Under the pieces are notes generated by a model, which saw only the letters and a list, made by a program, of their open reading frames with translations, did not search any database and had not been told where the DNA came from. This document shows positions 26,426 to 37,353 of a stretch of 64,000 bases of DNA, piece by piece. The DNA lies in the NCBI GenBank assembly GCA_963850695.1, contig CAWKMJ010000001.1, positions 267,837 to 331,836 on the forward strand, written 5' to 3'. The translations under genes and the position numbers were made by a program. The DNA is from an uncultured Actinomycetes bacterium (GTDB lineage Bacteria > Actinomycetota > Coriobacteriia > Anaerosomatales > CAWKMJ01). Position 1 is the stretch's first letter, and each line of letters begins with the position of its first letter.

Positions 26426-26491
26426 AGTGACGAACGGTCACAAATTATGAAGTGTGAACGTCGGGTGGGCCGAAGTGTGACGACCGTCACT
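26426..26491. promoter_or_regulatory. Hydrogenase promoter region with CRP/FNR/Rex-like palindromes
   Basis: TGTGA-cgaccg-TCACT (26476-26491), AGTGA-cgaacgg-TCACA (26426-26442), minus-strand CATAAT between them. Confidence 0.5.
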
Positions 26492-27547
26492 CGGCAGCCG
26501 ACTCGGTGGCCACCAGCTCCGAGATCGCATCGGCGATCTCATCGATAGGCACGACCGCTCCAGCGGCGCCATGCTCCACAGCGGCCCTCGGCATGCCGAA
26601 GACCGTCGAGGTCTCTTCGTCCTGCGCGATGGTGGCAGCGCCGGCCTCGAGCATGCACTTGAGACCGCGCGCACCATCAGCGCCCATGCCGGTGAGAATG
26701 ACTCCGACCGATCCCCGGCCATAGCTGGCGCACGACAGACTCGAACAGCGTGTCTGCCGAGGGGATGTAGAGCTGCCCCTCGAGGGGCTTCTCCATGCGC
26801 ATGACCATGCCGTCCATCACCAGGTTGGTGCCCGTGGGCGCAAGGTACGCATAGCCGGGAGCCACATCCCGACCATCGGACGCGACCTGGATCGTCAGCT
26901 TGCACGCGGAGTCCAGCCAGCTCACGAGGCCGGGAACGAAGCCTTCGGCAATGTGCTGCGCGATCACGATGGGAACCGGGAAGTCGGCGGGAAGTCGTCC
27001 CAGGATCGACAAGAGAGCCGTAGGACCGCCCGTCGAAGAGCCGATCGCGACGATCGACCGCGAGCCCGGCTTGAGCTCGGGCCCCGGCCTGACCGAGCGC
27101 GGACGCTCGCGGCGACCCTCTGATGTGTGTGATGACGCGGACACGAGCGAGCACCTTGACCTTGCGGATCACCTCTGAGCCGATCTGCTCGAGATCGGCC
27201 CAGTCCCGCGGCTCGGGCTTCTTGAGTACCTCGAGGGCTCCCTTCTGGAGAGCGTCGAAGGCGCGGCCGATGCCTTCGCCATGCACCGAGGAGGAGACGA
27301 CGAGTATCGGAGTCGGGTGGTACGCCATGATCTGCTCGATGGCCTGGAGTCCATCCATCCTTGGCATGTGGATGTCCATCGTGATGAGATCGGGCTCGAG
27401 CTGCTGAACCGCGTCGATCGCCTCCTGACCGTCGCGGGCCATGCCGACGACCTCGATCTCGGCGTCGCTGCCAAGAATCTGAGCCAGCATCTCGCGTGCA
27501 ACCAGCGAGTCGTCAACGATGAGGACCTTGATGCGGGAATCTGTCAC
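26487..27547 (-). CDS. cheB: Chemotaxis methylesterase with REC domain; frameshifted
   Basis: [41 protein letters not shown]. Confidence 0.95.
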
Positions 27548-27559
27548 TACGTGAGCCGC

Positions 27560-35023: not shown

Positions 35024-36593
35024 TTAGGTCGTCTTCCGACACTCTATCAGACTGCGTTCGCACGTCTTGGCCAACAGATCCGGCTTGAAACCCCCCAGAA
35101 ACGCCGTCCATTCGCCCTCCGGTGAGCGGTACAGACGCCTGGATCGCGTTCTCGTATTCCCTGCACGCATCGTCGGTCGCGCCCTTGGGCTCGATACAGG
35201 TTCGCAAGGTTGAGATGGGCAAGCGGGAAGTCGGCATCGATGTAGATCGTCTTCTTGAACTCCGAGAGCGCCCGCATGGGATCGTCCATACGCAGATAGA
35301 TGATGCCGAGGGTGTAGCGTGCGGCCGCGATCAGCGGATCGATCGCCAGTGCCTGGTTGGCCTCGAGGACGCGCCGAGTCCAGATCGCCGGTGTCCGCGT
35401 GTGCAAAGGCGGCAAGCAGGAACGCCTCAGGGTTCTCCGGGTCCTCCTCCAGGATCCTCTGAGACAGCGCGAGCGCGTCCTCGGGTCGTCCGTCGGCAGA
35501 GGCGTCCCGTGCCTGCGCCAGGAGTTCCTTGACACCTAGCAGCTCGGCCGCGTCCTCGACGGGAGCGCAGCGCCCTCGATCGGGGCCGACGTCAGGGATC
35601 ACCCCAGGCTCCATGTCAGGGAACACGGTCTCCCGCGCAGGGTGCGTCAGCGGGAGCCGGAGCCTCCTTCGAACGCCTGCGGCCCCGACGCTTGGAGGGT
35701 CGCTCGGCGACGACGGACGAGAACGTGGGTCTGCGTCCGCGAGCCTTGCGATACAGGAACACGCCCCCGACCTCGACCGGCTCGAAGCGGTCCGAGATGC
35801 TGGTCAGCGTCTCGGAGTGACCAACGAAGAGGTATCCACCGGGATTCAGGCTCTCGTAGAAGTTCTCCACGACGCGCCTCGTCGACTCCAGTCGGAAGTA
35901 GATCGTGACGTTGCGACAGAAGATGACGTCCCAGTTGCCCATGAGGCCGAGTGGGTACGGCTCCTTGATCAGGTTGTGGTAGTGGAAGTCGACGACGCTG
36001 CGGACCCTGTCTGTGACCCGATGACCCGCGCGCCGTGGGCTCGAAGAACCGCGACGAGATCGTGTGCGGCACGCTGAGAAGCGCCCTCGACGGATAGATG
36101 CCGGCCTTGGCGACATCGAGAGCGTTCGTGGAGACGTCGGTGCCCAGAACCTCAGTGGTGTAGCCAAGCCCCTCGAGACCAGAATCGAGCAGCGTCATCG
36201 CCACCGAGTAGGGCTCCTCGCCCGTCGAGCATCCAGCCGACCAGACCCGGAACGACTTCTGGTGTCTGGCGGTTTGTGCTCGAGTGATCTCGGGGACGAT
36301 GCTCTGCCTGAAGCGCTTCGAACTGCGCCGGGAACCGGAAGAAGCTCGTCTCGTTGATTGTGACGAGGTTCATGAGTTCCTTGAACTCTGCCTCATCGCT
36401 CGTGAGCAGCTCGATAGTACTCGTCAAGCGCATCGAATCCCAGCCGGGTCGCCCGCGTGATCAGCGAGATGCGCAGCGAGTCGGCCTTCGATGCCTCGAG
36501 GTAGATGCCCGAGTGCTTGTGGATGTAGTCGCGGAACCGCTCGAACTGTTCCGGCGTGAGGTCCTTTGCCAGGCTCTCGCCGTCGCCGACCAT
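35024..36593 (-). CDS. cheR: CheR methyltransferase with C-terminal TPRs (FrzF/WspC-like); frameshifted
   Basis: TINETSFFR, WSVGCSTGEEPYS, DVIFCRNV, GHSE; TPR AARYTLG..ALSEFKKTIY. Confidence 0.93.
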
Positions 36594-36601
36594 GTCCGCC
36601 C

Positions 36602-37353
36602 TCAGCTCTCTACGGCAGCTTCGTCGAGCATGGCCACCTGCTCGATGAGACCGGCAGCGAACATGCCGTAGAGGATCTTCGCGGTCTCGAAGTCGTTGTA
36701 TCCGGTGAGCTCGACAAGCTCACGAACGGTGCGGCCGCCATGCAGGTAGCACAGGAGCATCCACTCCTTGGGCTTGAGGTGTATCTCCATCGACTTGTCG
36801 CCGGGTGCACGAGGCCATGATGAAGCGCGTCTCCATGCTCGGGATCTTCTGCCGGATGCGGTTCCACAGCTCGAGCCGACGCGCGGACTCCATGATGATG
36901 TTCTCGACCGAGACCGAGATGCCGATGTCCTCGTCCTCGCAGGTCTCGTCCGCCTCGAAGCGGAGCTCGCCCTCGTCCCAGCGGAACAGGTCGAAGAGCG
37001 TGTCGTTGATCTGGTCTTGGATGAAGTCCTCGAGGACGTCGCTTTCGAGGTATCCCTCGTCCACCAGGATCTGGCCCAAGCCGGCGACCGGCCTTCTCCT
37101 TCTTCTGGATCTTCTGAAGACCGAGGGCCTGGCGAAGCTGCTTCTGTGAGATCACGCCGGCCTTGACCAGACGCTTGCCGAGCGACTCGCGGTTCCAGTT
37201 CGACGACGCGAAGAAGACACGCCCCTTCTTGAAGCAGACGATCCCCTCGGCGTCCTCACGCTCCATGTGGAGCGTGCCGGTCTTGTCGCCGGATGCGAGC
37301 AGCCGGAACATGTCTTCGAGCGAGAAGTCTTTGAGGTTGCCCTCGAGCGCCAC
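36602..37353 (-). CDS. DUF4388 (PATAN-like) protein with inserted MshEN-like motifs; frameshifted
   Basis: LEGNLKDFSL..KTGTL..F.KG.V..A; LGKRLVKAGVISQKQLRQALGLQ and RLGQILVDEGYL; LFRWDEGELRFE, IMESARRL; GGAGG RBS. Confidence 0.85.

Follow-up and report, generated by a model that had tools for sequence, protein, structure and literature searches.

The window, the whole 64,000-nucleotide stretch of DNA analysed here, carries on its minus strand a nine-gene chemosensory operon that runs from the start of a PATAN gene at 37353 to the stop of cheB at 26487. A tblastn map, together with Pfam searches of the window pieces and of intact orthologues in a relative's locus (L011), agrees with the initial annotation on the gene order, the shared orientation and the limits: PATAN(DUF4388)-CheR/TPR-CheY-PilB-like-CheW-CheW-MCP-CheA/REC-CheB (Table 1). 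Intergenic gaps in L011 range from -11 to +37 bases. The Pfam matches to MCP signalling, CheA, CheW and CheY-type receiver domains, in L011 orthologues and window pieces, show that the Che core is complete, with one MCP, a pair of CheW proteins, a hybrid CheA-REC kinase, CheY and both adaptation enzymes, CheR-TPR and CheB; two extra proteins are encoded alongside. No gene for pilin, PilC or PilM lies within the operon, as had been claimed for the first two, and the operon does not adjoin pilus genes; an enzymatic output domain, such as GGDEF or a glycosyltransferase, is likewise absent from its Pfam matches. The HD-GYP-type and GGDEF-EAL genes remarked on earlier are indeed present nearby, but a functional tie to the operon is weak and was set aside, since neither is conserved as a neighbour: the former lies near the operon in 0 and the latter in 5 of 20 relatives' loci.

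Table 1. Genes of the chemosensory operon, in order of transcription, and two neighbouring genes. Pfam families are those matched by window pieces and L011 orthologues.
Gene product	Position	Strand	State in the window and evidence	Pfam families
PATAN (DUF4388), stand-alone, ~249 aa	36602..37353	-	split over 3 frames	DUF4388
CheR methyltransferase with C-terminal TPR	35024..36593	-	at least 4 frame changes	CheR_N, CheR, TPR
CheY-like receiver, single-domain, 126 aa	34572..34952	-	intact; Response_reg 1.3e-30	Response_reg
PilB-like pseudo-ATPase	32636..34603	-	intact ORF; T2SSE 3e-57, MshEN 7.7e-15	MshEN, T2SSE
CheW, low-complexity N-terminal extension	31789..32622	-	intact; CheW 1.2e-29, residues 138-268	CheW
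Second CheW	31206..31781	-	intact; CheW 9.4e-28	CheW
MCP, membrane-anchored	29975..31221	-	3 frames; tblastn, Pfam	HAMP, MCPsignal
Hybrid CheA, C-terminal REC	27560..29968	-	at least 4 frame changes; tblastn, L011 Pfam	Hpt, H-kinase_dim, HATPase_c, CheW, Response_reg
CheB (REC and methylesterase)	26487..27553	-	3 frames; tblastn, L011 Pfam and NCBIfam	Response_reg, CheB_methylest
HD_5 (HD-GYP type), near operon	38385..39356	+		HD_5
GGDEF-EAL, near operon	42239..43966	-		

Four genes (those of the receiver, the PilB-like protein and both CheW) are whole open reading frames in the window, and the other five are split over frames. The tblastn map places two frame changes in PATAN, at least four in CheR (pieces in frames -3/-1/-2/-3/-1), two in MCP, at least four in CheA and two in CheB, at least 14 altogether. 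These breaks are most likely assembly errors and not gene decay, because short-read contigs from four other sequencing runs do not have the extra base and the whole assembly is similarly fragmented. Seventeen runs are listed, none of them of RNA, and 15 contain some of the stretch, with 0.17 of the sampled words as the maximum; four, from three studies, were used solely for checking single-base differences. Their contigs have one base fewer at 12 listed sites that coincide with mapped frame junctions, including 35134, 35188 and 35588 in CheR, 27754, 28297, 28312 and 29407 in CheA, and 26733 in CheB. True decay of the operon in this strain into a pseudogene cluster, with real frame changes, would fit the count of at least 14 across five genes, and the compared contigs, being 88-99% alike, come from relatives and not necessarily from the same strain. 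Decay is nevertheless highly improbable, since every one of the 12 differences is an extra base in the window and the same kind of break occurs throughout the source assembly (completeness 51.5%, 2.16 Mb, 3 contigs), where type IV pilus (T4P) genes and a second set of che genes are split likewise. Indeed, coding-like ORFs of at least 500 aa, called with GC3 thresholds set relative to each locus, number 4-6 per 100 kb in that assembly versus 10-27 in all but one of the 20 relatives' loci; the exception, L014 (GC 0.59), has 0, few of its ORFs having passed the composition filter. Between the breaks, moreover, the window sequence still resembles its orthologues closely, with 88-91% identity in PATAN and at the C-terminus of the MCP, for instance.

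The Che proteins are well defined by their orthologues. CheR of L011 matches Pfam CheR (2.4e-57), CheR_N and several TPR families. CheY is 78-96% identical across 19 other relatives' loci, the active-site residues DD...D...T...K being visible in the orthologue sequences, and orthologues of the first CheW align over its CheW part only. Hydropathy of five MCP orthologues outlines two transmembrane segments separated by an outer loop of ~8-12 residues and followed by HAMP and signalling domains; none of the five has a ligand domain, in keeping with the initial annotation. An estimate of about 40 heptads for the signalling domain, made from its length, was set aside. CheA of L011 comprises Hpt, dimerisation, HATPase_c, CheW-like and REC domains, with a single Hpt and no P2 domain found, and CheB of L011 scores 1.2e-57 against CheB_methylest and 361 bits against the NCBIfam CheB model (cut-off 342). 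A CheA-REC hybrid, CheR-TPR and an MCP devoid of a ligand domain are marks of alternative-cellular-function (Dif/Wsp-like) pathways. The Pil-Chp system of Pseudomonas aeruginosa is a pilus-linked pathway that likewise comprises CheA-REC, CheW, MCP, CheR, CheB and CheY-type regulators, which act on PilB and polarity; its kinase ChpA contains many Hpt-type domains, whereas CheA of the present operon has one. The Pil-Chp cluster is not known to hold a PATAN protein or a PilB paralogue.

The first of the two extra proteins resembles canonical PilB/GspE (TIGR02538) in fold (Foldseek match to PilB 5TSH, E 1.8e-26) and in the MshEN-N2-CTD domain order, with an MshEN-fold N-domain, a disordered linker, N2 and C-terminal ATPase-fold domains. 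It also keeps the four zinc-binding cysteines (C530, C533, C560 and C563), which are invariant in the alignment of the PilB-like proteins. However, despite this conserved architecture, the Walker A lysine, the Walker B glutamate and the His box are lost, in line with the pseudo-PilB proposed earlier. The lysine occurs in none of 17 aligned sequences and in none of the 75 loci with a parsable motif (of 80 counted, 5 had none), its position being taken by R in 48, A in 16, S in 6 and G in 5; of 73 loci, 2 have a glutamate at the Walker B position, and the His box of the orthologues contains no histidine. The alignment of pseudo-PilB (A5), like A1, covers 16 of the 20 relatives' loci, L022, L027, L029 and L030 having been dropped for over-long, truncated or broken ORFs, and alignment A2 covers 15, leaving out L014 (a stop) and L017, L021, L022 and L025 (over-long ORF calls). 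By comparison, the two canonical PilBs of a relative, to which pseudo-PilB is 27-30% identical, retain all three catalytic elements; they score 664.6 and 654.9 bits against the TIGR02538 equivalog model (cut-off 675.65), versus 277.1 bits for the PilB-like protein.

The N-domain of pseudo-PilB has diverged as well. Although it still matches Pfam MshEN (7.7e-15), it reaches 26.2 bits against the MshE-type motif model NF053729, below the cut-off of 38, whereas the canonical PilBs score 57.1 and 49.1 bits. A leucine occupies the position of MshE Gly11 (position 3 of motif 1), and the G11L variant of MshE shows little or no c-di-GMP binding (PMC5013675). The PilB-like protein is a pseudo-ATPase that has lost the residues for both ATP hydrolysis and c-di-GMP binding. 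Of the two MshEN-type proteins put forward earlier as c-di-GMP readers, only the PATAN protein is thus retained.

The PATAN protein contains an α-helical 'clip' insertion that bears an MshE-type motif pair, and its C-terminal part is winged-helix-like. Its match to DUF4388 (PF14332; 8.5e-32) falls into two stretches, profile positions 1-72 and 50-122, interrupted by the helical insertion expected of an α-clip; the AF2 model (pLDDT 84.3) shows helices at residues 58-124. The window copy is 88-89% identical to that of L011 (tblastn). As originally claimed, the MshE-type motif is present: the 53-residue NF053729 model gives 45.0 bits (E 6.8e-12, cut-off 38), and the PATAN profile aligns to residues 5-71 of the MshE N-domain 5HTL (E 3.7e-7). 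As in Vibrio cholerae MshE, both glycines (position 3 of each 24-residue motif) and the Leu/Gln positions are kept, as LG and RLG with Gln ends. Unlike in MshE, the pair is inserted in a PATAN domain and not placed at the N terminus of an ATPase, the spacer between the motifs is 10 residues long instead of 5, and a serine replaces the first arginine (position 1 of motif 1); changes of this residue in MshE (Arg9) alter affinity at most about fivefold (PMC5013675). A Foldseek search of the PATAN model against the PDB returned no match at E<=0.001, the best being a winged-helix domain at E 0.12, with weak PilM-like matches. No REC is fused to PATAN, the 249-aa protein giving no Response_reg match; the receiver is encoded separately, with cheR between them. 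By its motif, the PATAN protein is the predicted c-di-GMP reader of the operon.

Conservation of synteny had been named beforehand as decisive for the proposal, and it is found in all loci compared: all 20 relatives' loci examined carry the nine genes intact and in this order. The PilB-like orthologue (E<=1e-90) is spread through the order (Anaerosomatales-like Coriobacteriia): 124 of its 142 sampled genomes have it, against 0 of 158 from other orders of the class. It is sporadic in one other actinobacterial class, and the whole operon also exists in a genome with 36% GC from another class. Identity of pseudo-PilB is 58-69% in 17 of 19 other loci, L020 having 44% and L021 47%, and that of CheA is 62-74% in 17 of the 18 loci scored. 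Conservation at levels similar to those of CheA indicates that pseudo-PilB is under selection; a decaying relic was rejected on these grounds and for the order-wide conservation. As to the host setting, flagellin is absent from, and PilC present in, five of five genomes, and the T4P cluster encodes two PilBs, PilT, PilC, a pilin, a peptidase, an MglA-like GTPase and a second PATAN protein. PilC persists in four of five genomes that lack the operon, which argues that the pili are independent of it. Two members of the order have been cultured and are reported to be non-motile with pili-like appendages, which one of them makes solely on ferrihydrite (PMC9686372).

The presence of a motor-dead PilB and of a PATAN protein with a c-di-GMP-binding motif makes it probable that the operon links type IV pili to a sensory array. 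More specifically, we give a probability of about one half to its being a T4P-linked chemosensory pathway, its PilB serving for signalling alone and its PATAN protein predicted to be gated by c-di-GMP, in non-flagellated Anaerosomatales-like Coriobacteriia. The motor-dead PilB would act as a signalling or docking subunit, a counterpart in nature to the Walker A mutant of Myxococcus PilB that resembles the apo form, and would convey the pilus-base state to the ligand-blind MCP/CheW/CheA array. CheA would phosphorylate CheY, and CheY and the c-di-GMP-gated PATAN protein would in turn influence the true PilB/PilC motor, in the manner of PATAN domains in Synechocystis, CheR and CheB supplying adaptation. 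A complex prediction for pseudo-PilB and PATAN scored 0.00 ('no answer') and was counted neither way.

Two further known systems lie close to this arrangement. The cyanobacterial Tax/PatA-type systems (Synechocystis PixG/PilG/PixE) also combine PATAN, CheY, CheW, MCP and CheA in a T4P bacterium; the PATAN α-clip is likened to the start of PilB, and PATAN domains are reported to bind the N-terminal part of PilB1 and the PilC N-domain (10.1101/2021.06.11.447907). In contrast to the cyanobacterial PATAN-REC fusions, PATAN here stands alone, in an operon that also encodes CheR, CheB and a motor-dead PilB paralogue; its MCP is devoid of a sensory domain, and the host is a Gram-positive anaerobic actinobacterium. 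In Myxococcus xanthus, according to PMC5544727, PilB signals exopolysaccharide (EPS) production upstream of the MCP DifA, the CheW DifC and the CheA DifE; its apo-like K327A mutant signals without pili, the apo form being the signalling form, and the PilB-like protein described here is naturally devoid of the Walker A lysine. There, the motor PilB does both jobs and is encoded outside the dif operon, whereas here a separate paralogue that has lost catalysis and the c-di-GMP motif lies between cheY and cheW.

The direction of signalling may be either, with PilB-like and PATAN proteins as input or as output, since precedents for both have been published. A bolder version of the input arrangement is unlikely: in it a hexameric former ATPase, physically joined to both CheW proteins and the MCP, would form a novel type of array input, pilus-base occupancy would control CheA and PATAN would provide c-di-GMP gating. 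Pseudo-PilB might instead be purely a target, which phosphorylated CheY and/or PATAN would place on the pilus platform or incorporate into mixed hexamers with real PilB, there to act as a brake or decoy against extension; we regard this as somewhat unlikely. A hexameric ATPase fold that keeps its zinc cysteines while losing its catalytic residues would suit a competitive dead subunit, the cheY gene lies directly upstream, and PATAN domains act as output domains on PilB1 and PilC in Synechocystis (10.1101/2021.06.11.447907). Such an output would, however, leave the ligand-blind MCP without input, and the Myxococcus precedent has PilB upstream of Che-like proteins (PMC5544727); mixed hexamers are made less likely by the mere 27-30% identity to canonical PilBs.

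A signalling-only PilB tied to the pilus has also to be set against a pathway whose output is not the pilus at all. CheA-REC, CheR-TPR and the MCP without a ligand domain, together with the lack of linkage between operon and pilus cluster and the persistence of pili in genomes that lost the operon, would agree with a Dif/Wsp-like route to exopolysaccharide, biofilm or another output, the PilB-like and PATAN proteins being adaptors unrelated to pilus dynamics. The non-motility reported for cultured relatives (PMC9686372) and the regulation of EPS through Dif by M. xanthus PilB (PMC5544727) point the same way. This is distinctly unlikely, given that both accessory proteins belong to families with documented pilus-motor partners and that the operon is devoid of an enzymatic output domain.

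In the T4P-linked pathway favoured here, three so far separate lines, PATAN-motor binding, nucleotide-free PilB signalling and the MshE-type motif, meet in one operon that Gram-positive, non-flagellated subsurface actinobacteria have long kept in evolution. No description of this combination was found in the literature searched; the system can thus be called undescribed within that literature, as was first suggested, but its parts (PATAN α-clip, MshEN motif and signalling PilB) are already known, and the MshEN domain combinations of PMC5013675 (Supplementary Table 4 and Fig. 3b) may include PATAN/DUF4388. The predicted c-di-GMP readers are two PilBs and two PATAN proteins, to the exclusion of pseudo-PilB. 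A conserved, catalysis-free PilB copy offers a clean means of telling signalling by PilB apart from its work as a motor, and bears on the question, raised in PMC5544727, of how widespread signalling ATPases are. If pseudo-PilB does serve as array input, a dedicated 'signalling PilB' would have arisen by duplication, and ATP-free PilB signalling to Che arrays would be ancient and selectable. Loss of catalysis is not universal in the family, since a distant orthologue (in genome G602) retains both the Walker A GKT and the Walker B glutamate.

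The nine-gene operon is a variant of pilus-linked chemosensory systems. Each of its domains is known, but in the literature searched neither the combination nor the dedicated dead PilB appears to have been described: no account of this nine-gene operon turned up, nor of any che operon that includes a PilB paralogue. From the ORFs and a GC3 plot of the reading frames, the minus strand is coding over 26.4–37.4 kb and the coding frame shifts repeatedly within expected single genes. Four genes are whole ORFs (the receiver, the PilB-like protein and the two CheW proteins), and the five broken genes were recovered piecewise by mapping onto the window, with tblastn, the intact proteins of a relative's operon used as reference (L011). 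The initial annotation had the coordinates and gene order right, since stop codons fix the gene ends; its observation of the operon is confirmed, although the window probably contains frame errors from assembly.

Operon genes and neighbouring features in window positions, with identity of the relatives' proteins to those of L011
Feature	Position	Strand	Stop-codon end	State in the window	Identity to L011 (%)
PATAN/DUF4388 protein	37353-36605	-	36602	tblastn pieces, 3 frames	59-87
CheR-TPR	36593-35033	-	35024	tblastn pieces, at least 4 frame changes	49-66
REC receiver, 126 aa	34572-34952	-	34572	whole ORF	78-96
PilB-like protein, 655 aa	32636-34603	-	32636	whole ORF; Pfam T2SSE 3e-57, MshEN 7.7e-15	44-69
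CheW	31789-32622	-	31789	whole ORF	35-65 (both CheW)
CheW, second	31206-31781	-	31206	whole ORF	35-65 (both CheW)
MCP	31221-29978	-	29975	tblastn pieces, 3 frames	57-83
CheA-REC	29968-27563	-	27560	tblastn pieces, at least 4 frame changes	51-74 (18 loci; L028 stops before CheA)
CheB	27553-26523	-	26487	tblastn pieces, 3 frames	
YkuD L,D-transpeptidase gene	37488-38261	+			
FlpD/MvhD-like and [NiFe]-hydrogenase genes	22671-26299	-			
632-aa ORF	20149-22047	-			

The frame breaks in the window operon are probably not real. The genome to which the window belongs (G000; three contigs totalling 2.16 Mb, with a marker-gene completeness of only 51.5%) has short coding-like ORFs throughout, with an N50 of about 300–330 aa and 4–6 ORFs of at least 500 aa per 100 kb, versus 10–27 in 19 of 20 relatives' loci, a rough contrast in that these loci are rich in long genes; locus L014 (GC 0.59) gave 0 such ORFs because the composition filter let few ORFs through. 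In G000 the window operon shares this fragmentation with the pilus genes and the second che cluster. Comparison of 24500–37800 with Logan contigs from four public runs of three studies (88–99% alike) gave at least 12 single-base ‘left out' differences (12 listed here, and 57 more). Those listed, at 24774, 24912, 25718, 26733, 27754, 28297, 28312, 29407, 35134, 35188, 35588 and 37510, fall at frame junctions mapped by tblastn, and at every one of them the window carries a single extra base. The rival reading is that the operon has truly decayed in the strain of the window. The breaks, if they are assembly errors, are strongly clustered outside 31206–34952: this 3.7 kb stretch (two CheW, PilB-like, REC) has none, and the flanks 24700–31200 and 35000–37400 have about one per 400 bases.

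The operon is conserved in arrangement. A full-length orthologue of the PilB-like protein (44–71% identity) is present in nearly all of 30 relatives of the same order, and the approximately 19 kb examined around 20 of the relatives' orthologues contain the nine genes in the same order and orientation in every case (one locus stops inside the MCP gene). Spacing between neighbouring genes in L011 ranges from -11 to +37 bases, so that they adjoin or overlap. At E≤1e-90, the PilB-like protein has a match in 125 of 301 genomes of the class sample, G000 counted, corresponding to 124/142 genomes of the same order and 0/158 of other orders in the class. The 80 orthologous loci are labelled Coriobacteriia, Anaerosomatales, Coriobacteriaceae, Actinomycetota or similar in metagenome-assembled genomes, and the lineage of the operon is therefore an Anaerosomatales/OPB41-like order of Coriobacteriia. 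In a phylum sample of 401 genomes the one match outside the order (32% identity) is in genome G602, on a contig of 36% GC that holds the whole operon in the same gene order; the operon is present in 2 of 48 genomes of that class. A single genus, g58, accounts for nine of the 18 same-order genomes that lack a match. In four g58 genomes and a further genome without pseudo-PilB, G007, neither the operon's CheA nor a split (clip-bearing) DUF4388 match was found; because these are absent together with pseudo-PilB, the operon has been lost as one unit. PilC is found in four of these five genomes, so pili are independent of the operon.

By its sequence motifs and models, the PilB-like protein has kept its fold and is a pseudo-enzyme. 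All 17 aligned sequences (A1: the window and 16 orthologues) have Arg or Ala in place of the Walker A lysine and share four invariant cysteines. Compared with the two canonical PilBs of one relative's pilus cluster, Walker A reads APVAGGRSS and variants instead of GPTGSGKST, Walker B AIDAVQS instead of VGEIRD, and the His box LGKLVIATFSGG instead of TGHLVLSTLHTN. Among the 75 parsable of 80 further loci, the lysine position is R in 48, A in 16, S in 6, G in 5 and K in 0, and the His box was not found; the Walker B glutamate is present in 2 of 73. The protein scores 277 bits on the NCBIfam PilB equivalog model (cut-off 675.65), versus 665 and 655 bits for the canonical copies. Its AF2 model consists of a confident N-domain (residues 1–143), a disordered linker (144–226), and N2 and C-terminal domains, with PilB, GspE/EpsE and PilF as best PDB matches (PilB structure 5TSH, E 1.8e-26). 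The distant, low-GC orthologue of G602 (L116 9263–11158; G602:C20) has Walker A GKT and the Walker B glutamate without the His box, and by its motifs is possibly an intermediate toward the dead form.

The MshE-type motif comprises two 24-residue motifs and a five-residue joint, according to the available text of Wang et al. (PMC5013675), in which binding is weak or absent in variants G11L and G40I, affinity drops more than tenfold with hydrophobic changes, and changes of Arg9, Asp12 or Gln32 cost at most about fivefold. Such a motif pair sits inside a helical insertion of the PATAN protein, which, counted from MALEGN, is about 249 aa long (alignments A2 and A4). Over residues 53–124, the A4 profile matches the Vibrio cholerae MshE N-domain 5HTL (E 3.7e-7); the two Gly, the two Gln and the Leu positions align, the first Arg is replaced by Ser and the spacer is five residues longer. 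On NCBIfam model NF053729 (‘cyclic di-GMP-binding domain-containing protein, MshE-related'; cut-off 38 bits), the operon PATAN protein passes with 45.0 bits, as do the canonical PilB copies (57.1 and 49.1 bits), whereas pseudo-PilB, which has Leu at the Gly11 position of motif 1, fails with 26.2 bits. The operon thus has one predicted c-di-GMP reader. The initial annotation had proposed two MshEN-type readers; the second falls away, and its interpretation is supported in part. What is shown directly is the anatomy, the conservation, the PATAN motif and, in the PilB copy, the disappearance of residues needed for catalysis and ligand binding.

By profile search the motif is common to the wider PATAN subfamily. 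A search of 1.84 billion representatives gave 808 clusters at E≤1e-30, most with the PATAN module at the N terminus of 400–1,500-aa proteins, and a relaxed 24-mer (position 1 free) has at least one match in 127 of the best 149 (116 for the printed pattern itself). Excerpts of PMC12448109, PMC9090330 and PMC5812497 do not state c-di-GMP binding by the PATAN clip; domain tables in the supplement of PMC5013675 may be relevant to the PATAN–MshEN link. The PATAN protein AF2 model is confident (pLDDT 84.3) and has no significant whole-chain PDB neighbour. Its C-terminal part (model residues about 190–240; gene at 36602–37353) resembles a winged-helix domain; the top Foldseek match, 2yu3, has probability 1.00 but E 0.12, and weak profile matches are to MarR/ArsR-type regulators (E 0.12–0.4).

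Two precedents, from Myxococcus and cyanobacteria, suggest how the operon might work. In the M. xanthus pathway PilB comes after the pilus and before Dif, its Walker A mutant supports exopolysaccharide without pili, and the proposed signalling form is the apo form (available text of Black et al., PMC5544727). PilB1 and the N-domain of PilC are bound by PatA-type regulators, for which the PATAN domain is sufficient, and on PilB1 the contact is N-terminal; PilB-type ATPases begin with the same alpha-clip as PATAN, and some DUF4388 proteins have a GspE_N domain (available text of Han et al., 10.1101/2021.06.11.447907). In the favoured reading, drawn by analogy, the motor-dead PilB would tell a ligand-blind MCP/CheW/CheA array the state of the pilus base, as in Myxococcus; CheY-P and the c-di-GMP-gated PATAN protein would act on the genuine PilB/PilC in the cyanobacterial manner; and CheR-TPR and CheB would provide adaptation. 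Pseudo-PilB could instead be a pure output or a brake, or the output could be a non-pilus one such as exopolysaccharide.

The genomic setting was examined in G000 and four relatives (two single-contig). Each of these five genomes has one main PilC locus, adjoined by a second, larger DUF4388 protein, and two to three CheA genes; flagellin was found in 0/5. One relative's pilus cluster (L112, G018:C1:862000-880000) encodes PilB2, a 656-aa PATAN protein, a small Ras/MglA-like GTPase, PilB, PilT, PilC, pilin and prepilin peptidase; the 656-aa protein has its PATAN module N-terminally, and its clip passes the c-di-GMP model with 43.5 bits. The G000 cluster is at L114 (G000:C2:366000-384000), with PilT elsewhere. 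The two cultured Anaerosomatales are rod-shaped and non-motile and bear pili-like appendages, which one of them forms only with ferrihydrite (Khomyakova et al., PMC9686372, whose text lacks ‘chemotaxis', ‘flagell...' and ‘c-di-GMP'). The other che cluster (L113, G018:C1:1762000-1778000) encodes CheR, MCP, CheY, CheB, CheA with P2, CheC, CheD and, last, a GAF-GGDEF diguanylate cyclase; this CheC/CheD-type cluster is in a genome without flagellin. In G000 it is at L115 (G000:C1:520000-536000), and a PilT gene comes next.

Directly downstream of cheB lie an FlpD/MvhD-like 4Fe-4S gene and the genes for the small and large subunits of a [NiFe]-hydrogenase (Pfam Oxidored_q6, NiFeSe_Hases). The FlpD-like protein, about 535 aa in relatives, is in 6 pieces in the window, and its gene adjoins the operon in 14/20 relatives' loci. 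The 632-aa ORF has a partial Asp/Glu racemase match and a weak Lactamase_B_2 match, and may be two genes joined artefactually, because the assembly has indel errors. Upstream, the YkuD gene is divergent, and a homologue is close to the operon in 6/20 relatives' loci.
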